DNA of 64,000 bases from Escherichia coli (lineage in GTDB: Bacteria; Pseudomonadota; Gammaproteobacteria; Enterobacterales; Enterobacteriaceae): the NCBI RefSeq assembly GCF_022846255.1, contig NZ_AP025682.1, one strand, 5' to 3'. The notes below the pieces were generated by a model that made no database searches, was not told the origin of the DNA, and saw only the letters and a program-made list of their open reading frames with translations. A program made the translations under genes and the position numbers. Below, piece after piece: positions 31,346-54,311 of the stretch (within the stretch, counting starts at the first letter, position 1; every line of letters starts with the position of its first letter).

Positions 31346-32227
31346 TGTAACCAAGTCCTGTAGAAGTCTGTCTCATAGAAATATGTTCCTGTGCAGTGAT
31401 ACTCTCTGTAGTAGTACTTGTAACTCTGTCCTTAACTCTCTCTTCAGTAATGTAGTCCCGCAACACCTGAATATAAATCTGTAATGTACACACACTGACT
31501 GTAACGTGCTTTGTTAAGTAATACCTGTTATTTCTTCTGTTATTTTTCCTGTTGTTTTCTGTATTTTGTTGTATGGAGTAATAACTCTTCTGAACCCGTC
31601 ATCACCTTTATAGCTAAGAGTATGACTTCGCCAGTGTTGATACTGTGGATAACGGTGATTAAGGAATTACTGTTAATGATCTGTTCCTGCAGCTCACCTG
31701 ATGAGTTTTGGTAGTAATACGTAAAAGAGTATGCCTTATGCCATTAAACAGCCTTACGGAATGTTGTTTAACCCTGTACCTCTGTTACTCATGTAGTACG
31801 TTGCGGAAAGCTACGTTAATTGTAATATCTGGTTATGGCGTTATGCCTTCAGTATTAAAAACATCTTTTACCGGAGAAACAGGGAAGTGGGGAAAGGCTT
31901 TCGGGATAACGTCAGGCCATTCTGACGGTATTACGTTAATCACAGTACAGGATAACGGGAGGGTAATGGAATTTTAAACCAGAGTAGTTCCACTGTTGTT
32001 CACTGGAAAAAGTGATTTCCCACGCGCGTTATAAACGCCTTTCCGCTTCAGTCTGGTTACCAGAGCTTCAGGCGTTATATGCGCTGTAACTGGCTGTTAC
32101 GTATGCTGTTCTCTGTCTGCTTCTGATACCCCTGGACGTCGTTACCGGAGGTCACCCTGCCTGATAACGTTTTCTTCAAAAATTACGCCAGCGCTTCTTC
32201 CTGTGTTACAGAACACGAGGAAGAAAC

Positions 32228-32827
32228 ATGAAGACTTACAACACCAATCCCGGTTACGAAATGGATCCCCAGCTCCTGACACACTTTAACCAGCATCTGG
32301 ATTCATTATTCGGGGTATATTCGAAACTGTTACCGTTCAGAATGGATTTTGCTTACCGAAAAAACACCCTCAGCTACAGGTGTGCCTGCAGGTACGCCAT
32401 GTGCGCGGAGATACTGCGACTGATTAACGAAGTGGGAGAGAAACTGGTCGGGTATGCCTGGGTAATGGAATATACGGAACGTAAAGGGCTTCACATTCAT
32501 TTTGTGGGCTATCTGAACGGTCAGAGCCACAGGAGTTCGTATCTGGTATCCAGATTGATGGGAGATATCTGGAGGCGGGTTACCGAGGGTGATGGTTACT
32601 ACCACTGGTGCCGGTTTAATAAAAATTATCCGGTAAACATTAACCACGTCATTCACTATTCAGATCACAAAGCGGTGAATGCCTTACGCTATGCCCTCAG
32701 CTACCTGGCCAAACGAGAACAGAAAGAATGTGGCATCATCCTGAAATGCAGCGGGCTTCCTGAAAAAAGTAACCGGGGTCGACCGCGACTGGGCAGCACC
32801 CTGCCGGAGACTTATTCTCTGGTGTAA
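32228..32827 (+). CDS. Putative HUH-type replication initiator-like protein (YagK/YfjJ, inovirus Gp2-like family)
   Basis: 199-aa ORF with a GAGGAAG RBS; HUH-like motif LHIHFVGY and downstream Tyr-containing motif YALSYLAKRE; family assignment from memory. Confidence 0.45.
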   Translation: MKTYNTNPGYEMDPQLLTHFNQHLDSLFGVYSKLLPFRMDFAYRKNTLSYRCACRYAMCAEILRLINEVGEKLVGYAWVMEYTERKGLHIHFVGYLNGQSHRSSYLVSRLMGDIWRRVTEGDGYYHWCRFNKNYPVNINHVIHYSDHKAVNALRYALSYLAKREQKECGIILKCSGLPEKSNRGRPRLGSTLPETYSLV

Positions 32828-33192
32828 GACCCTGAACGACAACTACGGGCTGGCGCTAATTGTTACGGTCGGTTCCGGAGGCCACTTCAGGGACTCTGCG
32901 CATTTTTTACGACATGGCTATTCCGTATGAACCATACGGAGATTTAACCATGGCACATTCTTTACCATTCCTTCCGGCAACCGATACAGCGCATCCCCCG
33001 ATGTCCATCCCTGCCTGCTGACAGTTTTTTACGCCGGTGGGCCATTGTGTGACAACCACAGTGCTGTAACAGCAACCAGCCTGCTTTACCCAAACTCCAG
33101 TCCAGATTTTAACTGAACCGCCATTCACCCCCTGACCACACTGCCCGTACCGGGACAGCTGTTGCCTGCGTGTCGTCTGGCGGCTGAGGAAT

Positions 33193-33582
33193 ATGACGAT
33201 GTACGCAAAATCCTTTATTGCATTTGATGGCAACGGGCGTCTGACGGGTGCCCGTACCGCACAGACTGCACCTTACGATCGCTACACTTACCACCTTTGC
33301 GGCAGTGCGCTCAGATACCACCCGCAATACGACACTGAGCGTCCCTGGTTTGAACACACTGACGACGGGCTGACGGAGCACGGTCAGCAGTGCCCTTATG
33401 TCAGACCGGAACGCAGGGAGATACAACTGATTAAGCGTCTGCAGCAATTCGTACCGGATGCCTTACCCGTGGTGCGTAAAGCCAGCCGGCACTGCAGACA
33501 ATGTCATCACGATTATTATGGGGAGCGGTACTGCACGCACTGCCATACCGGGCACTTCAGTGAGGAGGGGGTGGCAGAATGA
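33193..33582 (+). CDS. Cys-rich hypothetical protein (zinc-ribbon-like), paralog 1
   Basis: 129-aa ORF with a TGAGGAA RBS; motifs C-x2-C ... WFEH ... C-x2-C-x8-C-x2-C-H-TG. Confidence 0.45.
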   Translation: MTMYAKSFIAFDGNGRLTGARTAQTAPYDRYTYHLCGSALRYHPQYDTERPWFEHTDDGLTEHGQQCPYVRPERREIQLIKRLQQFVPDALPVVRKASRHCRQCHHDYYGERYCTHCHTGHFSEEGVAE

Positions 33583-34004
33583 ACGGTATAAAAACGGGGC
33601 TGGGGATCACGCCGGGTGAACACATAATCAGTGCTGATTCTGCACTCAGCAGAAATATCCGGCAGTGTTTCTGCCTTTCCTGTCATGGCCGGTTGATTTT
33701 GCAGACAGATGCTCAGGGGGCATGGTTTGAGCATGATTTATATGCCCTGAGCGAGCAACAGAAGGCAGCCTGCGTGGTGCTGAATCCGGAGAAGTCCCAC
33801 CCTTACATTGAGGATATGGCGATGTTTTTATCGCCATTACCGGTCGTGCTGGAGTGGCATTGTATGATGTGCGAGGGGCTTTTTCATGGGAAGAAGTTCT
33901 GTGAGGCCTGTGGTACGGGGATTTATTGCAGAGCAACATGTACGAAGTATGTTTACAGGTACCAGCCAGATTTGTACCAGGACTGCGGAGGTGCACTCAC
34001 TTAA
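33579..34004 (+). CDS. Cys-rich hypothetical protein (zinc-ribbon-like), paralog 2, translationally coupled to paralog 1
   Basis: 141-aa ORF; ATGA start/stop overlap at 33579-33582 with a GAGGAGGGGG SD; same C-x2-C ... WFEH ... C-x2-C ... C-x2-C-G-TG pattern as paralog 1. Confidence 0.45.
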   Translation: MNGIKTGLGITPGEHIISADSALSRNIRQCFCLSCHGRLILQTDAQGAWFEHDLYALSEQQKAACVVLNPEKSHPYIEDMAMFLSPLPVVLEWHCMMCEGLFHGKKFCEACGTGIYCRATCTKYVYRYQPDLYQDCGGALT

Positions 34005-34706
34005 TCCGAAATGCCCGCTCTGCTCAGGGCGTTCAGGCTGACTATCAATGGCATACATTTTATCCGGTGTTTCGCACCCACACCGTGCAACGACTCGACA
34101 CCGGATATCCGCAGTCCCGCTTACCTGAATAAAACCCGGGGGATTGATTGTGTACTGTGGTGTGAAATCGCACCGTGATCGCTGATTCGCCGAATCCGCA
34201 CTGTGGTGTCAATCAACCACACGCGAGAGTCGTCTCAGGCTTCGCCTGCCTCAGGACGATTTCTGCATAGCTAATTCCCGGGGCAACATTTATAGAGGCG
34301 CTGTGCGCTCTGATGGTCGCCACTTCTGACCCGGACCATGCTCCTGATATGTCGGAATATAATGTGATGTTAGGCATCAGAGAGGAATATTTCGATGCCC
34401 CTAATCTGGGGCGTTTGATTCTGGATGTCTGGAGCAATCCGGGCTTTGTGTCACCGGACGAATCAAAGCAGTACCACCCGGGATGTGGCGCTGGATCGTC
34501 ATTCACCGGACTGTGAAGACATACTTAAAGAGCTGATATGGGCGTTCAGTGATTTCGCCCGCGATCATCGTGGTGTGTGTGATCCGGAAGCCCGTTACCT
34601 CGCCGGTAATCCTTGGTATCCGTAGCAGGCCAGCTCTGAAAGCACAGCTCAGCAGATTCCCCGCATTCGCACAACCTTCATAAATCTCACAGAGGACATT
34701 GTGGCC

Positions 34707-34916
34707 ATGTTGACCACAACAAGCCACGACAGCGTATTGCTGCGTTCCGATGATCCCCTGCTCGACATGAACTACATCACCAGTTTCACCGGCATGACCG
34801 ACAAATAGTTTTATAAACTGATCAGTGAAGGCTATTTTCAAACTGGGCGGTACAAAAGCGAAGTGGAGCAGTGGATGCAGCAGCGAATAGAGGGAGCGTG
34901 GGGGCAGCAGGATGAA
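34707..34916 (+). pseudogene. alpA-like regulator pseudogene (in-frame amber at codon 34 replacing the conserved Trp; normal stop lost)
   Basis: Translation MLTTTSHDSVLLRSDDPLLDMNYITSFTGMTDK-stop-FYKLISEGYFQTGRYKSEVEQWMQQRIE parallels the intact AlpA at 29494-29700; TAG at 34806-34808. Confidence 0.5.
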
Positions 34917-35816
34917 ATGTGTTGTGATGCCGGTACGCTGGCATTGTGCAAAATGCCGGCGCTACTATTGTGGAAATCAGCCCTGTCCCTGGTGCTGGCG
35001 ATACTCCCTGCAGACATTCTCCGGTCAGCCAATAGGTTGTTGCTCTTTCCTGATCGATTCGTCATTCCATTCTTTTTGTTTATAATGGGCATTACACTGG
35101 TGTTGGCGTGTTTACCTGCGTGTCTGCACCGGTTCAGTAAAATTAGAAAAGTTCAGAGTCGGGGGAAATCCGGCGTTTTGTTCAGCAGGCGGTGGATCAC
35201 TGGCCAAATCTGTTGGCATTTCACTTCACGTTCCATTCGACAGAAGGAAACATCTACGGGCAACAGATTCATGCATTCTGCACTTCCTTTTACCAACAGA
35301 TACACAAACGTATTACTGCACGTACTCACACGACCAGTCCATCATCGCCGTTGGTGTTACACTGGCTGCTGGAACAACATGGAGGAGCAGTAATACGATG
35401 CGTATTGCTCCTCAGCCAGACGAGTATTTGTCATCCGCGAGCCAGCGTCACGGTTGATGAAGAATGTTCGAAACTGGTGGATTTATTGCAACAGATCTGG
35501 CCAGTGATAAGCACTGGCGGACAATGCCAAGTGGAAAGGTGTTTTCAGGTTGCCCGGGGTGATACATCAGAGCAATACGTTGCGTTAAAAACAGATGCGT
35601 TGTCGTTTGCTGTGTCGGATCACAAATCATCCGGTGCAGAGTAGTATTCTGGCTGTATTCTGGTAAATCAGCGTATTATCGATATATTATCGTACTATCA
35701 GAAACCGTATCGTCTGTTGATGGCTAGACTGGCCCCCCTGAATCTTCAGACAACCAATATCACTTATTTAAGTGATAGTCTTACTACTAGTTTTTAGACT
35801 AGTCATTGGAGAACAG

Positions 35817-36182
35817 ATGATTGATGTCTTAGGACCGGAGAAACGCAGACGGTGTACCACTCAGAAAAAATCGATATTGTTCAGCAGAGCCTTGAACCGG
35901 GGATGACAGTCTCTCTCGTTGCACGGCAACACGGTGTGGCAGCCAGTTATATCTCTGGCGCAAGCAATACCAGGAAGGAAGTCTCACTGCTGTGGCTGCC
36001 GGAGAGCAGGTTGTTCCGGCCTCTGAGCTTGCTGCCGCCATGAAGCAAATTAAAGAACTCCAGCGCCTGCTCGGCAAGAAAACGATGGAAATGAACTCCT
36101 TAAAGAGGCCGTCGAATATGGACGGGCAAAAAAGTGGATAGCGCACGCCCCTTATTGCCCGGGGATGAGGAGTAAACGTCGT
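35817..36182 (+). pseudogene. insC: IS2 orfA (insC) disrupted by frameshifts
   Basis: The frame from ATG 35817 stops after 29 codons; the conserved InsC segments ([53 protein letters not shown]) appear in three different frames. Confidence 0.5.
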
Positions 36183-36198
36183 CAGTCGTTGTCGCCGG

Positions 36199-37038
36199 GT
36201 GTCGCATGAGCAGTTGCACATCATTCTCAGACGAAGTGATGACTGGAAGGATGGCCGCCGCAGTCTTCACACTGATGATACGGATGTGCTTCTCCGGATA
36301 CATCATATCATCGGAGAGTTGCCCACGTATGGTTATCGTCGGGTATGGGCGCTGCTTCGCAGACAGGCAGAACTTGATGGTATGTCTGCGATCAATGCCA
36401 AACGTGTTTACCGGAACATGCGCCAGAATGCGCTGTTGCTTGAGCGAAAACCCGCTGTACCGCCATCGAAACAGGCACATACCGGCAGAGTGGCCGTGAA
36501 AGAAAGTAATCAGCGATGGTGCTCTGACGGGGTCGAGTTCCGCTGTGATAACGGAGAGAGACTGCGTGTCACATTCGCGCTGGACTGCTGTGATCGTGAG
36601 GCACTGCACTGGGCGGTGACCACCGGCGGCTTCAACAGTGAAACAGTACAGGACGTCATGCTGGGAGCGGTGGAACGCCGCTTCGGCAACGATCTTCCGT
36701 CGTCTCCAGTGGAGTCGCTGACGGATAATGGTTCATGCTACCGGGCTAATGAAACACGCCAGTTCGCCCGGATGTTGGGACTTGAACCGAAGAACACGGC
36801 GGTGCGGAGTCCGGAGAGTAACGGAATAGCAGAGAGCTTCGTGAAAACGATAAAGCGTGACTACATCAGTATCATGCCTAAACCAGACGGGTTAACGGCA
36901 GCAAAGAACCTTGCAGAGGCGTTCGAGCATTATAACGAATGGCATCCGCATAGTGCGCTGGGTTATCGCTCGCCACGGGAATATCTGCGGCAGCGGGCTT
37001 GTAATGGGTTAAGTGATAACAGATGTCTGGAAATATAG
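36199..37038 (+). CDS. insD: IS2 transposase orfB (InsD, DDE integrase-fold catalytic domain)
   Basis: 279-aa ORF recalled as InsD-like (...[13 protein letters not shown]...NQRWCSDG...[10 protein letters not shown]...[14 protein letters not shown]...). Confidence 0.8.
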
Positions 37039-37049
37039 GGGCAAATCCA

Positions 37050-37508
37050 AACATAGGTTGAGGTGTTTTGTCCATGCAGACGAATGCAATTAGCGACGTT
37101 GACTCCGGCCTGACGAGTTTGCTCTAGTAATGTTTCTCCATAAAAATCATTGCCTACAGCAGATATCAGATGTACATCCCGGCCCAGCAAAGCGAGATTA
37201 TGAGCGATATTGCGACCTACCCCACCAGCAGAGCAATAAATTCTGCCTGGATTAGAGGAGGTCTGTGGATAACTTATATCCGCTACACCACGAATATCCA
37301 TGTTAATCGCACCCAATGCGACACAATATTTTTGTTGAGTCAAGATGTAACCTTTACCTTTGATAGCCCCTTTACGCATTAGATCCATTATGTGCGCAGC
37401 GACACGCGAACGACTGATCTGCAAAATATCAGCAATTTCACTCTGTTGAATCAGTGGATTACGTCGCAGGATGCTGAGTATTTCTTTTTCTCTGTGATCC
37501 ATCGGCAT
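37050..37508 (-). pseudogene. HTH-containing PfkB-family sugar kinase (YeiI-like) gene truncated by the IS2 insertion
   Basis: N-terminal HTH (EKEILSILRRNPLIQQSEIADILQISRSRVAAHIMDLMRKG) followed by a ribokinase-type motif (GGVGRNIAHNLALLG). The reading frame runs straight into the IS2 right end at 37049. Confidence 0.5.
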
Positions 37509-38491
37509 GCTCCTGTCTGTTTATTTAATGTTCATAAAAATGATATTCAATGTCCTCTCATGAGTATTACTCAGGAAATAATATCGTCGAATTTTTTTCT
37601 GAGTAATAAGATATAATATATCAGTTTTTCTTAACAAATTGTAGGCTGATTTGAGTTGAATCCAGATGATTGAACTCATTCAGTCAAGCCAAATGATTGA
37701 GAAATTTCGTTTTCCGATATGTGATTGTTGCGTTGTGGTTGGGATAATGTAATCTATTTTCCATGTGGGAGAAAAAACCTTCACTATCGTGTAATCGTGG
37801 ATTCAATCTGGAACGACAACGTCCAACCATTGTTCTGCAACATGATGTGAGTGTCAGTTGGTGGTTCCGGATAAAGGAATAAAAGAAGATAGATTATTAA
37901 TCCCCTGATATATAACGCGATTTGTAATTAAATAGTCTTATTTGATGTTGAACGTTAAATAGCTTCTCTATTGTGATGTAACAATATACAGTGATTAATG
38001 ACAAGCATCTTGCAATGCATCTTACAATGTTATACTTTGATATTTTTGGCTGTGTTGGTCAGAGGCTGACTTCGCGGAATATTTATTTCGTAATTCAAAA
38101 AAATATTGATGTCTTTTTTATAAACCCAAAAATCGAATGAAAGAATCAGATTGTATATCTGATACAGATCATGGAAAAATGAATGTTCACTCGTATAGAC
38201 TCCTGATAAGTCAATAGTGAGTATAGTAAATATGATCATTTATTGTTTCGTTTTATCAATCTTATTGATTATTCTTCTGTTTTTCTTCTATTCTAAGAGA
38301 TGGGTGTCTGCTTTTTATAGATATCGTCAAAAGCGCTATCATCAGAAAGTCAGGGACAAAGCGTTTAATGCTTATGCAGAGGAAATGAAGAAAAAGAACA
38401 AAGATATAAAAAAATATAAACATTTCTGGCTTCCTCCACTCTGATTCATTAGTGTGTGTAGTTCCGATATCTTGTTTTACAGGAGAATATC

Positions 38492-38722
38492 ATGATCAAA
38501 GATTCAAAATCATCGAATAATGGCGAATATTTAACGACGAATGAAATTGTTAAGATGCAGTGGCTAATGAGTAAAGCTCGTGTTAATGCTGGCAAGTTAA
38601 AGAAACAAAACACCTCTGCATCTTCACAATCAGGAAAGAATGCCTCATATTTTCTAGAAGAATTAGTATCTAATAATCCAAAAAAATTAAAATCAGGTTG
38701 TGATAGCACAAGAGAAGAGTAA
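38492..38722 (+). CDS. Small hypothetical hydrophilic protein (76 aa) in an AT-rich region
   Basis: Good SD (AGGAGAA, 6-nt spacer) before the ATG; otherwise unsupported. Confidence 0.25.
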   Translation: MIKDSKSSNNGEYLTTNEIVKMQWLMSKARVNAGKLKKQNTSASSQSGKNASYFLEELVSNNPKKLKSGCDSTREE

Positions 38723-40732
38723 TACACCGATAAACTGCTCAGCAGGAATGTTCTCGGTCACGAGTCGCTCAACTGTTGTAAATATGGCATCGGGAACTAT
38801 ATATTTGAGTTTAGTTTATCTAATGACAGGAATCCTTGTGGTCGTCTTTTTCTTGAACGATGTAGGGGCTGCGCAAAGTGATTTTCCTGCTTCTGCATGC
38901 AGTCCTTCTAAGATCGTGAGAGAGAAAACATGGACATTGGGGAAAGCTGAGAGCATCAAATTATTTAACCACGACGATTTATCCCTGCTTTGTTGTACTG
39001 CCGTAATGCTTGAGCTGGATAGTCCTGAATCACGGGGAAATCTACGGCTCCCGATTTTTAATAGTTGCGACCTGATAAAACAGCACCGTATATCCTCGCA
39101 CTGAAGGGCCGGGTTTTACAGCGTACTGGATAATTGACTATGCGTTGAAGTACAAATTGATAATGCCAGCCTGAAAACAGAATTCTCTGATCTATTTACA
39201 AGACTATATACTTGACAACGACTCTCTTGTCAAGATATATTATTTGAGAGTACCCCTGTGCCACCCTGTTATGGCTATGACTCGTGTTGGTGGTATAGGG
39301 TACGCTCTGATACTTTTAATTAGGTGAATATAGCGGTTCATTTTGGAGTTTTAACGGGTAATGTGGTTGGATTGTAATCGTCCTCTGTATTATAAAGTCT
39401 GGAGGTTGCTTTTGTAGCAATATTCTGATCTGACTCCTGCAATTGGTTTCCAATGTTTACATCATAAAATCCATTTATAATGAGGATCAATTTGTAAACT
39501 ACCGAGATCCTTATTTGGGCTTTATACCAAACTTACCTACGGTTCACTCTAAATTAAGTCATTCTGTTAGTAGCTGGATTTGCTGCGAGCTGATATTTTT
39601 CATATTTTTATATCGTGATTACCTGTTATGGACTGTTCTGCAGCTTAGATCTTAGTCAAAGCTGTGTATATTCATTACTATCGTTATCTTTTACTCGTAG
39701 GATGATTATATTGCTACCTGTACCGTTTAGTCATCGTAAGTGTAGTGGTGGCCGAGGAACACCGGATCGGTATAAGGTGAAAAAGTGCTTTTTCAGGTAT
39801 CCGCGTCAATGTTATCGTAATTTTTAGTATGACGATAACCTGCCGTGACCAGCATTTTGGTTAATAATTTCAGTATAGTATCCAGTTGTAGGTCCTGGCG
39901 TGAATAGGACAAACGTATTATCTGCAAAAACAATGCTCGTTCGGAGTGTCAGTCAGTTATTCTGGTTGTATTGGATCGAGCCCTGATTGCGTGTGATATG
40001 GAAATACTCAGTTTCATAATTGGCGATATCCCGGGAAGAACTAACAAGCTGCGTTGTAGTTTTAACTTTTGCCACAATTTCGTCATATGCTGAATTACGG
40101 TTGCAGTTCCCGCCAGAATAATCGACAAAATCGTAGCCAGCGCTAATGAAATTTAATCAGTCATAAATGAAGAGTACGCTAAAGGTTTCTGGTACTAACA
40201 AAATTCGTTTTGCCATTTCAATCCTCTGTGCAGATAATTTATTGTTGGAATGAACAGATTCCGGTTAGAAAATCACATGTTGCAATCACGAGTGGGGCAG
40301 GTTGCTTGTTCGGGGAAATAATTTACCTTGATAAAATATTAAAATTGTATATCAAGTTCTAAATACATCTCAATAAAATAAACTAATTTATTTTATTCGT
40401 TAATAATAGTTTATTCTGGAGAGGTACAGACGCGGGCAGTTCACCCAGAATATGATTACTGATACGTACCTGGTTAAACAGCCCCGATGTTGATATTCAG
40501 TAATACGAAGTTTACGACTATTTATCTGATTTCATTGTTGGGGATTTTTAATCTCGACTTAATGCTAAATACGGGCCACTTTGATGTCAGCCTTATCTGA
40601 AGGTACCGATAATGAACGGACATTCTACTATATAAATAGTTCACGATTAGAACTAATTTGTAGTACTATTATGAGTAATAGTGAATCTGGGGAAAATCAG
40701 GACATGGAGCATGGCATCATCATTTTCACGCT

Positions 40733-41800
40733 TTGCAAAGCATGCAGCTGTTAATTTTACTGATACAGCAAATGAAAGATAAATTACGATTTGAAGTGAA
40801 TGATACTCAGGGCCGTTTCATCTTTCCGGAAACATGGTTCAATACACTTATAGATGAATTTGAGGAACTGGTTGAGGCATATGATGCGGAAAAAATATGT
40901 GGGAAAAACTATATAAGTGAACTCCAGCGTCTTACCGAGCAGGTGCCTGATTTTATCGATGCGTACGCTCATTTGGCATACGTGTTTCTGGAACAGAATG
41001 CGCCATATCAAGCCCTGGATATGGCGCTTAAAGGTTTAGCTGTAGGTAACCGTTTAATAACAGAAGGGTTCAATGGAGAAATTCTCTGGATATATCCAGA
41101 GAATCAACCCTACCTGCGGGCCCTTTATGCTACAATCCTTGCCAATATACATCTTCAACATCATCAGGATGCCGTCATACTTACGGATAAAATATTGACG
41201 TATAACCCAGAAGATAATCAGGCTGCACGATGGTTACTGGGACAAGAACTGTTACGTGCAGGCGAGCGTGATCGGGCGCTGACCCGGTATTCTGATGAAT
41301 TTTCACCTTATTGGTATGAACTTGGATTTCTGCTCTTTCTTAACGGAGAGTTCGTGACGGCAGCAACTGCTTTTCGCCACGGTTTTGCCACTAATATCTA
41401 TATTGCAGATATTTTATGTGGAAATCTACATCCCTTTCCACTTCCTCTGTGGCATAGTTTCTTGGGAGGACCAGACATCGCTGAAGATTATTATGCAACA
41501 TATGGTCTGTTCTGGGGGCAATATCCGGAAGCATTACTTTTCGTAAATTGGCTCTACAATCAGTCATCTGTGTTGAATGAAAGAGCAACAATAATTAAGT
41601 GTGCAGAAGCATTGTTGCGAGAAGATGATTACGAGGCATGCGAGAAGATTCTTAAAGAACAGAAGAGATTACAGGATAATATTGACGACAGGATTTCTGA
41701 GAAAATAGTTAGGAAATACCGAACATTGCAAGGGGATGAGATTTGGCCATGGATGTTACCGTCTTCAATTGATAAGGAGCTGTCCCCTTTTGATGAATAA
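40733..41800 (+). CDS. Hypothetical helical-repeat (TPR-like) protein
   Basis: 355-aa ORF of moderate GC inside an AT-rich region; repeated amphipathic helix pairs; true start may be the internal MKDKLRF. Confidence 0.5.
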   Translation: MQSMQLLILLIQQMKDKLRFEVNDTQGRFIFPETWFNTLIDEFEELVEAYDAEKICGKNYISELQRLTEQVPDFIDAYAHLAYVFLEQNAPYQALDMALKGLAVGNRLITEGFNGEILWIYPENQPYLRALYATILANIHLQHHQDAVILTDKILTYNPEDNQAARWLLGQELLRAGERDRALTRYSDEFSPYWYELGFLLFLNGEFVTAATAFRHGFATNIYIADILCGNLHPFPLPLWHSFLGGPDIAEDYYATYGLFWGQYPEALLFVNWLYNQSSVLNERATIIKCAEALLREDDYEACEKILKEQKRLQDNIDDRISEKIVRKYRTLQGDEIWPWMLPSSIDKELSPFDE

Positions 41801-42428
41801 ATATGTGTTGCACGTTTAATATATTAATCATGGCTGGGCGTATAAATCATCATGAAGAGGTATAAATTATAATTATACCATGATTATGAACACGCCCTTC
41901 ATTCTACATCTGTAGGGCGTGATCTTCTACTGAATTTGATTGTAATTATAGCAGTATCTGTATAATGGCTTTATCAGTGAGTTAATATTATGTCGTATGT
42001 AATATAGTAACAGAACAATAATATAAAAATTAAGCTGAGTGTGGATATAAAAGAAAGTTTGTTATAGATTAAATGAAATACCCTCAGAAATATTCTGATG
42101 TAAGGTTATACATAATTGTCGACTATAATCGTATGATATTACATGAGTTTTTAGTGAGTGTGCGATTTCATGTCAGAAATGGATTGTAATGTTTTGTACA
42201 TAAGCATATTTGAGTGCTAAGTGCCTGATGGATATATGTTAAAATATATAACCCTTTGAGTACATTGTCCAAATGGATATAAGAGATAATTTATTATATC
42301 AAAAAATCTGATAACTGAAAACCTCTTGTGTCCCAATAAATAAGCTTAGTTTTAGAAAAATGAGATGAATTTATACAGTGATGCCCTATGAAGCTATTAT
42401 CATGATAGTCATGACACATAATTCTCGT

Positions 42429-43739
42429 TTATTTTAATGGACTAATATCACTATTATTATCGCTATCTGTGATTTTTTCCCCATTCACGGAGATCATTCC
42501 CTGGATATATGAATCCCATAGATGTACGTCACCTTTATGAAAAATAATGCATGACATTGCGATTTTTTGTACTTTATATATCTGTTTATAGTATTCTTCT
42601 GAGTTTAATGGTGTATCTTTCAAGCTTTCATTCCTTGCTGGAAGAATCTTGACGGGACAGATAAAATCTGTATCCCCGAGTGAAAAGACATTAACTCCGG
42701 TTATAAAAAAGATACCCGGAATGTCTTGATGCAATCTCGTATTCCAGACTTGAGGATTAAACAGTTTATATGAATATTTATTTACATCTATATAATATTG
42801 ATGAGGACGCCAATCACTGATACCCGACATACTCATCGTCATATTGATAATTATATCAGGAATAGGTTTGAATAATACACTTAGAATGAACAATATGGCA
42901 GGAGGGAGTATTGCGATAGATAGCAAAGAGTTCAACCCTTCTTCTTGTTTTTCTTCTTGCTCATTTATCACTATCACACCTGGCAACATTCCTAAAAAGA
43001 TAAAAGCTAATGCAATGCAAGAAAATGATAGAAACTGTGATAAGATATCTGCACTCTCTTCAAGTCTGATCTTATTTGTCAAAAATAGCAGGGGGATAAT
43101 CTGAACAAGCCCGGGTAGAATTAAACATAAAGGAAGAGTGTATCTTATCCTGTTCCTGGGACGATATTGTTCGTGATTCTCGTGATTCTCGTGATTCTCG
43201 TGATTCTCGTGATTCTCGTGATTCTCAATGTTCTGTTCCCGAGGGGTATTTTTAGTGAATATTAATTTTTCTGAGAGGAAATATGAGACGAAATAATTAA
43301 ATAATACTATTAGTATTACTTCTGATATGGATGGATATAGAGTATTTTCTTCTGAAAAGGTAGACAGAACTGACTTTAGCACTAATGAAAAATAGAAAAC
43401 AACACTGTTCATATAGCAAATTATAGCAATTCTGTGCGCGATTCCTTTGTGATTTTTATAATAGTCTTTATGCCATGTATATGTATACACCAATACATGA
43501 GAAGATATAAAAATCAGTGAGGTTAGAGCCATTAGAGATAAAAGGATAAATATAAAGATAACACTTAAATAAAACTTTATGTCTATTGAGTCGAAAAACA
43601 AATCAAGTCTACCGAGTCCTTGCAGATAGAACCATATTGCAGATATGGCGCATCCTGTACTAAATACAGAAGACGTTAACATGGCGAGAAAAGCTTTATT
43701 ATTTAAATGTGAAAAGATAGATCTATTCATTATAAGCAC
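42429..43739 (-). CDS. Hypothetical polytopic membrane protein with an (ENH)6 His-rich repeat loop and a C-terminal soluble domain
   Basis: 436-aa very AT-rich ORF with multiple hydrophobic segments; 9-bp tandem repeat encodes ENHENHENHENHENHENH. Confidence 0.5.
   Translation of the reverse strand: MLIMNRSIFSHLNNKAFLAMLTSSVFSTGCAISAIWFYLQGLGRLDLFFDSIDIKFYLSVIFIFILLSLMALTSLIFISSHVLVYTYTWHKDYYKNHKGIAHRIAIICYMNSVVFYFSLVLKSVLSTFSEENTLYPSISEVILIVLFNYFVSYFLSEKLIFTKNTPREQNIENHENHENHENHENHENHEQYRPRNRIRYTLPLCLILPGLVQIIPLLFLTNKIRLEESADILSQFLSFSCIALAFIFLGMLPGVIVINEQEEKQEEGLNSLLSIAILPPAILFILSVLFKPIPDIIINMTMSMSGISDWRPHQYYIDVNKYSYKLFNPQVWNTRLHQDIPGIFFITGVNVFSLGDTDFICPVKILPARNESLKDTPLNSEEYYKQIYKVQKIAMSCIIFHKGDVHLWDSYIQGMISVNGEKITDSDNNSDISPLK
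43172..43225. repeat. 9-bp tandem repeat (CGTGATTCT)x6 inside the membrane-protein CDS (in-frame, encodes (ENH)6 on the - strand)
   Basis: Direct reading. Confidence 0.9.
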
Positions 43740-43945
43740 ATCATATTCTGTTGAGTATATGTCGATTTTATAATGTCATGTTCATGCAGATAATATCATA
43801 AGTAACATTAGTTGAACAAGAACAGAGTTGTAACAGATAAAGATCTCGTTGTTAGTTACATGATCTGATAAATGTTAGCATGAAATAGTAACTATATGAA
43901 GGATATAAGAACCTGTATCATAATGTCATATGCGTTATATCTGAT

Positions 43946-44707
43946 TCAGATATATTTTAATTTTGCTGATAGTTCTCGACATGCTTCAAGAACCAAAGTG
44001 GAATAATATTCTACTTTTTCTTTTGGCATTTGAATTTCCACACCACTAATGCTGATAGCAGCAATTGCTTCTCGAGCCTGATTAAACACCGGGGCGGCAA
44101 TGCAATAAATTCCTGGTGAATCTTCTGCGTTATCAAAAGCCCATCCTCGCTCACGAATACGTGCAAACTCTAGTATTAGATCAGATTTCCGAGTGATTGT
44201 CGTTTGCGTAAATCGAGGCAATGCCTCCTCAGGTAGTAAAGTGTCAATGACGTCTTGAGGTAACCATGCGCATAACGCTTTCCCCACCCCTGAGCTATGG
44301 AGTGGCAGCTTCTTACCTACCCACGTTCTGATACCAATTGGTTGAGTGCTTTCGAGTTTTAAGATATAGATTGGAGCGACTTCCTCAAGAATGCCTAAAT
44401 GGCAGATAAGATCAGTACTATCTCTCAGTTTTTCCAGCACCGGTCTCGCTACCTTACTTATGTCAAACTGTTCTAGCGAGCGATTTCCCCATTCATATAA
44501 TTTCAGTCCAAGGAAAAAACGCCCCCTTTCCTGACGTAACAAATGGTGTTCGACCAGAGCATTCAGTAAAGATGATGTGCTGCTTTTAGGCAGAGCCAGA
44601 TCTTGCTGGATTTGACTGAATGTGGCACCAGGAGAGTTGAAAAGATAATTGCAGATTCTGACTGTTTTATCGAGTGCTGGTACTGGTGTTCTTGTTTGAT
44701 TATTCAT
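43946..44707 (-). CDS. IclR-family transcriptional regulator
   Basis: 253-aa ORF with N-terminal HTH and C-terminal IclR effector domain; divergent from the catabolic operon. Confidence 0.8.
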   Translation of the reverse strand: MNNQTRTPVPALDKTVRICNYLFNSPGATFSQIQQDLALPKSSTSSLLNALVEHHLLRQERGRFFLGLKLYEWGNRSLEQFDISKVARPVLEKLRDSTDLICHLGILEEVAPIYILKLESTQPIGIRTWVGKKLPLHSSGVGKALCAWLPQDVIDTLLPEEALPRFTQTTITRKSDLILEFARIRERGWAFDNAEDSPGIYCIAAPVFNQAREAIAAISISGVEIQMPKEKVEYYSTLVLEACRELSAKLKYI

Positions 44708-45204
44708 AAAAAAATAACATATGATTTCTTACCAATGCTAAATAGTATACCCCAATCTTTATTAATGCATAGTGATGCTTAATCATTATGTTGCAGTTGA
44801 TCGACACAGGGGGACAAGAGTAGTTGTGTCACTGCCACATCACCCGGCATGCGATTTCACATCGGGATGTTCGAGAAGCATCAATGCTGCGCCCAAGATC
44901 CACCGAAAAGAAACGTGGGAATCACCGGCGGTGGGATTCATTGTCTATGCCCGTGTAGATTAGTGTGGATTTGCTGCACAGATGGTTCCGGTCTGAGAAA
45001 TGGGTAAATTCGTCGTTTACGACGGGAAGCTGCCTACACATGTTATACATCGTCTTCGTGTATCAACATGCTCCTATAAACTCGACTCAACTCACATTTT
45101 TCATTTCACATTGTAAAAACCTTTGACATGCAGAACCTTATTCTGATTCATTATATTCAACATGAAGAACTTTTGTTCCATATACAGAACTTAGTGAGAG
45201 CGAT

Positions 45205-52832: not shown

Positions 52833-52972
52833 ATTGTCATTGCTATACCATAGCTTGGAGAGGATTATTGGAATGGTAGAAGAGTCATTATGAGATAATA
52901 TTATTATCTGAGCTGGCCCCCTGAAATACCAGACAGTAGATGTATCTTAAAATAAGAGATAGGCTTGGATAT

Positions 52973-53368
52973 ATGTCTAACACTAGTTCTAATTTTGAGA
53001 TGGCTGGCGTTTTGTTAGGAAAAGAGGTGCGTAAACGTAAAACACCTCAGGAAAAAATCGCAATTATTCAACAGACTATGGAGCCGGGCATGATGGTGTC
53101 CCACGTGGCGCGTTTGCATGGAATTCAGCCCAGTCTGTTGTTTAAGTGGAAGAAACAATACCAGGAAGGAAGCCTCACTGCTGTGGCTGCCGGTGAAGAC
53201 GTTGTTCCTGCTTCTGAACTGACCGCTGCAATAAAGCAGATTAATCAGCTTCAGCGTTTACTGGGTAAGAAAACCATGGAAGTTGAGATCCTCAAAGAAG
53301 CGGTGGAGTATGCACAATCGCGAAAATGGATAGCGCATGTGCCCTTGTTACCTTCGGACAAGGAATAG
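52973..53368 (+). CDS. IS2-group transposase orfA (InsC-like HTH protein)
   Basis: [50 protein letters not shown]... parallels IS2 InsC. Confidence 0.7.
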
Positions 53369-54207
53369 CCCCGGTAAGCCGTGTTCTGGGCGTGTCACGT
53401 GCGCAGTTAACATTACGGATGAAGGCATCTGATAACAAGCCAGATAAACGGCGCCAGAGGCGCGATGAGGCTGCGGATGCAGAAGTCTTATCGCGCATCC
53501 TGGATATCATTGGCGATATGCCAGCATACGGGTATCGCCGTGTCTGGGCGATACTCAGGCGGCAGTCCCGAAATGAAGGACTACCGTTCGTGAATGCAAA
53601 GCGTGTTTACCGGATAATGAGCGAAAATAGTCTGTTGTTGTTACATGACAAACCATCACGACGGCAGCGGGAACATAAAGGCCGAATATCGGTGAAGGAA
53701 AGCGACCAGCGTTGGTGTTCCGATGGCTTTGAGTTCGGTTGCGATGATGGCGAAAAACTGCGTGTTACGTTCGTCCTGGACTGTTGCGATCGTGAAGCCA
53801 TAGACTGGGTCGCAAGCACGGGAGGTTACGATAAAGCGACAGTGCAGGATGTGATGTTAGGAGCGATAGAAAAACGCTTTGGCGATAAAGTACCGGAACA
53901 GTCCATCCAGTGGCTGACAGATAACGGTTCAGCGTACAGAGCGCATGAAACACGGCAGTTCGCCAGAGAGCTGAATCTGAAGCCCTGCACAACAGCAATC
54001 AGTAGCCCTCAGAGTAATGGAATGGCAGAACGGTTCGTGAAAACGATGAAGGAAGACTACATCGCGTTCATGCCGAAACCGAATGTAAGAACGGCATTGC
54101 ATAACCTTGCAGTGGCGATCGAGCATTACAATGAAAACCATCCGCATAGTGCGTTGGGTTATCGCTCTCCGCGAGAATATCGACGTCAGCGGGTAATGTT
54201 AACTTAA
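53326..54207 (+). CDS. IS2-group transposase orfB (InsD-like DDE domain)
   Basis: 293-aa ORF overlapping orfA in the -1 frame, as in IS3-family programmed frameshifting. Confidence 0.75.
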
Positions 54208-54311
54208 GATACAACCCCTGTCTGGAAATAAGGGGGCAAGAACACCGTCTCAGATCTGTTTTCAATGAAAACAGATCATTCTGGAACTACTCGTCCCAGT
54301 TACTTGAAGCG

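Follow-up and report, generated by a model that had tools for sequence, protein, structure and literature searches.

How did a copy of insertion sequence (IS) IS2 come to stand between the backbone of an Escherichia coli genomic island and the stump of a sugar-kinase gene? We analysed a stretch of 64,000 nucleotides (64 kb; hereafter the window) from E. coli contig NZ_AP025682.1, in which an IS2 copy at 35725-37049 directly abuts a truncated YeiI-like gene for a protein with a helix-turn-helix (HTH) and a PfkB-type kinase domain. A preliminary description of this DNA had taken the arrangement for a simple one, in which an IS2 with a broken orfA and an intact orfB had landed in the kinase gene and inactivated it, and had kept sequencing or assembly error in homopolymers as a possible source of the frameshifts. 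We found that the element is instead a mosaic of a decayed IS2 relic and a canonical IS2. It was probably produced by homologous recombination between two such copies, an exchange that, judged from the sequences, would have fused two formerly separate regions.

Results

The element is a mosaic of two kinds of IS2

The presence of an IS2 copy, as first described, was confirmed by its alignment over the full length of IS2A (L002:1761-3091) from E. coli K-12 MG1655 and by the exact match of its right terminus. Its extent, ends and internal switch point are as follows.

35725-37049, plus strand: hybrid IS2, 1325 bp, predicted to be non-autonomous; delimited by end-to-end alignment to K-12 IS2A
35725-35765, plus strand: left terminal inverted repeat region, with an extra C (C6 for C5, 35733-35738) and substitutions at IS positions 21, 42 and 43
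36622-36640, unstranded: crossover interval, relic type to its left and canonical IS2 to its right
37020-37049, minus strand: right terminal repeat, exact over the 30 bases tested against canonical IS2

Compared with the 1331-bp IS2A, the element carries 60 substitutions and 8 indel columns. The overall identity of ~95%, for which the isoform-level yardstick is about 95% or more, is an average of two very different values, ~93.5% over IS positions 1-903 and 99.5% over IS positions 904-1331. Terminal inverted repeats of the IS2 type are present on both sides (left, TAGACTGG...; right, ...GGGGCAAATCCA), and the left terminus is recognisable despite a few substitutions and one inserted C, which falls in the left-end catalytic domain. 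The element shares with IS2A, a member of the IS2 group of the IS3 family, its ends, length class, orfA/orfB layout, A6G slip motif and DDE core. Its last 427 bp differ from IS2A at 2 positions, whereas its first ~903 bp are ~6.5% diverged and contain five indels and a nonsense codon; unlike IS2A, it also has no 5-bp target duplication and, as far as its reading frames tell, no codable transposase. No second IS2 copy was found elsewhere in the window.

The origin of the diverged part became apparent from a relic in E. coli sequence type 131 (ST131), located at 1516882-1518199 of NZ_CP103465.1 (L001:6526-7843). The K-12 reference and this relic differ at 102 informative sites. Over IS 1-903 the window copy agreed with the relic at 64 of 65 such sites, and over IS 923-1331 it agreed with the K-12 reference at all 37 (Fisher p = 4.5e-27). 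If the ST131 copy stands in for the left parent, the switch from one type to the other lies between 36621 and 36641. Each flank pairs with the parent of the adjoining IS part: the left flank belongs with the ST131 island and its relic, and the right junction recurs on independent contigs that lack the left part. Mosaic IS2 copies were also found in finished genomes, those of TUM17543 and an O111 strain. The hybrid of the window and its right junction were both absent from 5,426 complete E. coli genomes, among which the best full-length match to the IS was 97.2% identical.

The flanks do not record a simple insertion

Next to the element, the 5-bp target duplication is not present; the left flank reads ATGGC and the right flank AACAT. 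By comparison, K-12 IS2A lies between ATTAC and ATTAC. The DNA to the left of the element (32162-35724) is 99.66% identical to the ST131 island and has the same junction with the IS; within the IS, 3 positions in the ~900 bp of the left part set it apart from the ST131 copy. What follows this shared left junction varies: ST131 has a LacI-family regulator gene with a sugar-acid operon, O111:H8 the ler side of the locus of enterocyte effacement (LEE), and the window the kinase gene. No plasmid match was found for the right flank. A simple insertion of the present copy is contradicted by the missing target duplication, by the occurrence of its left junction in genomes with other right flanks and by the mosaic element itself.

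The lesions were inherited from a widespread relic

Relative to the reference, the five indels are one C too many in the left terminal repeat, where it lengthens the C-run (35733); the loss of a G beside an A-run after 35863, which turns CAGGAAAAG into CAGAAAAAA; the deletion of one CAGC unit (4 nt) after 35939; the deletion of an A from the A4 run in GGAAAATG, after 36088; and the deletion of a G in CACGCGCCC, in the orfA/orfB overlap, after 36148. The preliminary description had seen single-base changes at A-runs. This is correct for two of the lesions and does not apply to the CAGC deletion, the overlap G deletion or the extra C.

Among E. coli sequences, 35200-37056 was matched best by copies on the chromosomes of ST131 and other lineages, where the annotation reads 'IS3 family transposase, frameshifted'. 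In the ST131 copy, all five indels, a nonsense codon in the orfB frame (W12stop, described below) and the left junction (...gttgatggc/TAGACTGGCCCCCC, with a slash here and below marking the junction) are identical to the window. Furthermore, 35600-36250 has matches of at least 99% identity in ~80 complete E. coli genomes. Because the indels are common to ST131 and these genomes, they are inherited lesions, and the earlier concern about sequencing or assembly error in homopolymers can be set aside. The substitutions and the extra C at the left end were likewise found in the ST131 and O111 copies.

The ST131 relic thus shares with the window copy the left junction, the left flank, the extra C, the 1-, 4-, 1- and 1-nt deletions and W12stop. 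It differs in staying diverged up to its right end, with another 32 substitutions and a deletion of 7 bp by which the region of the second catalytic Asp is lost. Beyond the relic come the LacI-family regulator gene and the sugar-acid operon; in the window copy, canonical sequence begins no later than IS 923, and the kinase gene comes next.

Relics of this kind were found in other settings as well. The conserved island backbone that carries the relic at its edge, with YagK/YfjJ, zinc-ribbon and HTH genes, is present in many E. coli. In O111:H8 (NZ_CP077588.1, L042:5301-7846), the same backbone and IS2 left junction lie ~850 bp upstream of ler, at the LEE; here the relic is split by IS1203, lacks IS positions ~97-190 and is a mosaic that differs from that of the window. 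This locus beside the LEE suggests that the relic marks a recurrent module boundary. The third case, in TUM17543 (NZ_CP135643.1, L039:4001-5325), is an otherwise canonical IS2 with a CCACT/CCACT duplication and a relic-type patch at IS 145-468, which includes the 4-nt, A and G deletions as well as W12stop. From its sequence, this copy looks like an active IS2 that was disabled by gene conversion from a dead one.

Some IS2 debris was also observed in E. coli M217 (L003:8753-9111), where an IS2 left-end fragment of 353 bp, inverted and 90% identical to 35724-36071, forms the end of the YagK/YfjJ backbone. In M217 a psuK-psuG-nupC-kinase cluster adjoins that YagK/YfjJ backbone too, so that the association of cluster, backbone and IS2 debris is repeated there.

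The element is predicted to encode no transposase

The remains of the two transposase genes and of the signal that joins them are listed below.

35818-36148, plus strand: orfA remnant, comprising residues 1-16 (35818 to ~35863), ~19-44 (to 35939), 45-93 (to 36088) and 94-114 (to 36148)
36127-36134, plus strand: C-A6-G programmed -1 frameshift motif, conserved
36166-36168, plus strand: TGA stop in the orfB frame, TGG in the reference (W12stop)
36199-37038, plus strand: orfB remnant open reading frame (ORF), internal and GTG-started, 279 amino acids (aa) against 301 in the reference

The alignment to reference IS2 that the preliminary description had put forward as a check was run, and orfA is not intact. 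Three-frame translation against the reference OrfA showed its pieces parted by 1-, 4- and 1-nt deletions, with another 1-nt deletion at the end. All three frames hold pieces of orfA, just as the first reading had it. The C-A6-G motif is the site where OrfAB is made (PMC3219604). With both downstream frames closed, the motif no longer serves any purpose; the G deletion that shifts the overlap is located fifteen bases beyond it. W12stop is common to the window, ST131 and TUM17543 copies. Together, the overlap G deletion and W12stop destroy the first ~22 orfB codons and any OrfAB fusion, which refutes the claim that orfB is intact and leaves a remnant of 279 codons.

This remnant keeps an open rve/DDE core (Pfam HTH_21; rve, 2e-18; rve_3, 1.4e-18), and the SDG, TDNG and ESNG motifs are kept in its translation. 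Its older part shows 15 amino-acid replacements. In the right part, which is canonical in other respects, there is a private W195S (36716, G-to-C; WLTDNG to SLTDNG), two residues before the second catalytic Asp. The change at 36716 was also seen in contig L048, a 100% match, and not in contig L046; both contigs are described below.

The element has therefore kept the layout of IS2, with orfA and orfB in two frames and an A6G motif joining them, and its homology to IS2, and has lost its coding capacity. On the evidence of the reading frames, OrfA, OrfB and OrfAB transposase should all be impossible to make from it, and with no codable transposase it is predicted to be unable to move on its own. 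Differences from IS2 in the non-overlapping part of orfA number 20 synonymous to 4 replacement, which indicates that the relic lineage diverged while under selection and died later.

The right junction recurs and has an empty counterpart

To the right, the kinase gene on the opposite strand reads straight into the IS2 end, as had been noted, and this produces a chimeric ORF.

37050-37508, minus strand: 5' fragment of the YeiI-like HTH-PfkB kinase gene, codons 1-153 of 366 (~42%)
36963-37508, minus strand: chimeric ORF of 181 aa, with 153 kinase residues and 28 residues from the IS2 right end

In the window the junction reads GGGGCAAATCCA/AACATAGG. The exact 181-aa chimeric ORF was found on 7 contigs, which come from 6 sequencing runs. 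Each of the seven aligns to the window through the junction, and two of them, L043 and L046, were checked base by base and have the same GGGGCAAATCCA/AACATAGG. Because the ORF recurs in this way, the IS2-kinase junction is real and has spread. Contig L046, which is cut inside the IS, has canonical-type IS2 from IS position 431 up to the kinase junction, and it is the one sequence that may represent the right parent. Contig L048, from the same run as L046, is 100% identical to the window and ends at 36635, the edge of the crossover interval. On L043 (ENA ERZ15610015, NODE_1402) only IS 995-1331 is left at the kinase junction. Ahead of this IS remnant, in the reverse complement of L043 (5688-6087), stands a left-end fragment of IS2 in inverted orientation. 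It is fused to 26 bases that are identical to the right end of a second IS2-group element in the window (see below), and before these lie nleE, nleB/SseK-type and Toxin_15 genes. L043 was considered as a second 'other side' of the IS and dropped, as a nest of IS ends or a metagenome misassembly, and it was used for the junction only.

A search with the 30-base kinase word next to the junction matched a single metagenome contig, OLHG01002208.1 (L040), which carries an intact allele of 366 aa whose first 153 residues are identical to the fragment in the window. L040 is 98.6-99.8% identical to 37049-44955 and has no IS; it reads ...GGTGATAGA/AACATAGG... (...GATAGA/AACATAGG...) and so provides the empty site. 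The gene order is psuG, a gene for a 416-aa NupC/NupX-type transporter and then the full kinase gene, with products that are 90%, 83% and 73% identical to PsuG, NupX and YeiI of K-12, respectively, the last of these over 359 aa.

In the window fragment the winged HTH is complete (Pfam PF13412 HTH_24, 3.7e-11, residues 3-50), and the PfkB match (5.4e-21) covers profile positions 2-93/302 only. Codons 154-366 are gone, including a stretch, DSFGADDGF, which we take to be the nucleotide-binding motif of PfkB kinases. Having lost the C-terminal 213 residues of the PfkB fold, the kinase is predicted to be inactive. The truncation reported earlier was therefore borne out, together with the probable inactivation; what did not hold is that insertion of the present copy caused it, given the absent duplication, the shared left junction and the mosaic structure. 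No trace of the kinase 3' part, nupC or psuG was found elsewhere in the 64-kb window.

The closest known counterpart of the kinase is K-12 YeiI (b2160), an HTH-PfkB sugar kinase encoded beside nupX and related to the pseudouridine kinase PsuK. The intact L040 allele shares its domain order and its NupX-like and PsuG neighbours. The gene in the window, in contrast to the chromosomal yeiI of K-12, is an accessory paralogue of which only codons 1-153 are present. YeiI itself has been described as uncharacterised and of unknown function (PMC9061257, PMC12506659). The nearest island copy in E. coli, a paralogue in M217 in the layout psuK-psuG-nupC-kinase, is 89% identical in protein and 82% in DNA. 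Against a set of 5.8 billion proteins the best identity of the kinase fragment was 89% among the matches listed, all of them short proteins, and against one genome per species it was 87% (Citrobacter). An exact look-up of the intact 366-aa kinase found it not on record.

The hybrid probably arose by recombination between two IS2 copies

The steps that would produce this structure can be outlined as follows. A canonical IS2 would have inserted after codon 153 of the kinase gene, within a psuG / nupX-like / yeiI-like cluster, where its left junction would be expected to read ...GATAGAAACAT/TAGACTGG. The older relic would have sat at the edge of the island backbone. An exchange between the two IS2 copies, with a crossover within 36622-36640, would then have joined the backbone to the 5' part of the kinase gene, and kinase codons 154-366, the transporter gene, psuG, the former right flank of the relic and the intervening DNA would have been lost or displaced. 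We infer this order of events, and likewise a single crossover rather than gene conversion and a separate deletion; the single crossover is favoured because it accounts at once for the mosaic, for the absence of a duplication and for the match between each flank and its part of the IS.

IS-mediated deletions and rearrangements by homologous recombination are well known from Shigella, Yersinia, Bordetella and experimental E. coli lines. As proposed for the window, such events leave a recombinant IS with parental flanks from two places and no target duplication, and the intervening DNA is lost. Recombination between identical copies leaves no internal trace, whereas the presumed parents of the window copy are of IS2 lineages ~93% identical, and for this reason the mosaic could be recognised.

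A number of observations weigh against recombination between the two copies as outlined. No independent sequence spans the crossover in hybrid form, for L048 stops at 36635 and L046 is canonical there. The parents, with ST131 as proxy, are identical over just 19 bp at the crossover, which is short for a RecA-type exchange; the true left parent in the lineage of the window may have been more similar to canonical IS2 at this point than the ST131 copy is. The assembly of L046, the candidate right parent, may have been threaded through other IS2 copies: at IS 998 this contig reads G and the window C, and in L048, which comes from the same run, IS 998 lies within the 100% match to the window. The ST131 copy is itself without a clear target duplication (ATGGC / AGGCA), and an empty site for a relic of the ST131 type, with the left flank joined to the LacI flank, was not found in the 5,426 genomes. 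Because of these two observations, the ST131 arrangement is not proven to be ancestral. Finally, neither a reciprocal product nor the deleted DNA is visible in the 64 kb of the source genome.

Three other explanations were weighed against the recombination of relic and canonical IS2. The right third of the relic might have been converted by a canonical IS2 located elsewhere, with a separate IS-adjacent deletion, illegitimate or promoted by IS-excision activity, reaching to kinase codon 153. Conversion patches without a change of flanks do occur, as in TUM17543, which keeps its CCACT duplication around the patch at IS 145-468, and the right flanks of the relic differ between lineages. However, two events are needed here where one crossover suffices, and the same IS2/kinase junction is found where the rest of the IS differs (IS 995-1331 on L043; canonical from 431 on L046), a recurrence that fits an IS2 insertion into the kinase gene predating, and independent of, the relic. 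We consider this pair of events unlikely. IS copies are also classic sites of misjoining, and if the source genome had both the relic and a canonical IS2 in the kinase gene, an assembler could have misjoined the two inside the repeat; that no independent contig crosses 36621-36641 in hybrid form would agree with such a chimera. It appears highly unlikely nonetheless: assuming a relic similar to the ST131 copy, the parents have only ~19 identical bases in common where the switch occurs, and this is below the usual assembler word sizes. Moreover, the 64 kb of the window, two IS elements included, are unbroken; IS2 mosaics of natural origin are present in finished genomes; and L048 ends at 36635, as a contig should where two IS2 lineages really merge.

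The model of the preliminary description, in which the window copy itself transposed into the kinase gene and its orfA decayed later, or the frameshifts are homopolymer errors, has in its favour that the kinase frame reads straight into the IS2 right end and that two of the deletions touch A-runs. We regard it as extremely improbable in view of the absent target duplication, the presence of the left junction and left-part indels in ~80 complete E. coli genomes with other right flanks, and the divergence of the left part from IS2, ~6.5% against 2 differences in the right 427 bp. Recombination between a relic and a canonical IS2 thus remains the probable origin of the hybrid.

Island context

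The surrounding DNA is that of an accessory island. Identity to E. coli is ~96% for the capsule and Ag43-type autotransporter genes at the left and 97.6% for the yjhG-yjhH-yjhI-sgcR region at the right end. The module from 37050 to ~52700, which starts at the kinase gene, is 82-87% identical at best to any of the 5,426 complete genomes. No tRNA genes were found in the window.

Left of the IS, the backbone at 33579-35644 includes a DUF7828/zinc-ribbon ORF (33579-34004) and stretches whose ST131 orthologues are annotated as pseudogenes, frameshifted or with internal stops, for a hypothetical protein and an HTH regulator. The island backbone on this side appears to be decaying itself.

The low-identity module includes an AT-rich stretch at 37.5-40.7 kb and two large ORFs without an NCBIfam match (40733-41800, plus strand, and 42429-43739, minus strand). 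They are followed by a sugar-acid cluster with genes for an IclR-type regulator, a DapA-family aldolase, a galactarate-dehydratase-like and a PdxA-like protein, GntP and major facilitator superfamily transporters and a lactonase-like protein. Another element of the IS2 group lies at the far side and may bound the module.

~52909-54244, plus strand: second IS2-group element, 72-77% identical to IS2 in DNA, with ends TGAGCTGGCCCCC... and ...GGGGGCAAGAACA
53326-54207, plus strand: orfB of the second IS2-group element, 293 aa, NCBIfam 'IS2 transposase TnpB' at 4e-125, below the model cut-off

Implications

The feature belongs to known kinds throughout and is an ordinary IS-driven rearrangement in an Escherichia genomic island. 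It is only mildly unusual, in that one relic recurs as the boundary between backbone and cargo and exchanges sequence with live IS2 copies. We tentatively propose, as one possibility, that the relic serves as a recurrent homologous docking site, joining different cargo modules (the sugar-acid operon in ST131, the LEE in O111, the psu/yeiI-like cluster here) to one backbone. It might also hand on its frameshifts to active IS2 copies by gene conversion, of which TUM17543 would be a case, and in this way a dead copy would disable live ones.

For annotation, these results mean that the element is a non-autonomous recombinant IS2 pseudogene, that the kinase gene is a 5' fragment and that their junction is a scar of IS-IS recombination and not a primary insertion, each at the strength given above. 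The locus, for which an empty site, occupied sites and a parental relic can be compared, is a clean worked example of how diverged IS copies make island rearrangements traceable, and it suggests that a single relic marks a boundary of island-module exchange in both pathogenic and commensal Escherichia.

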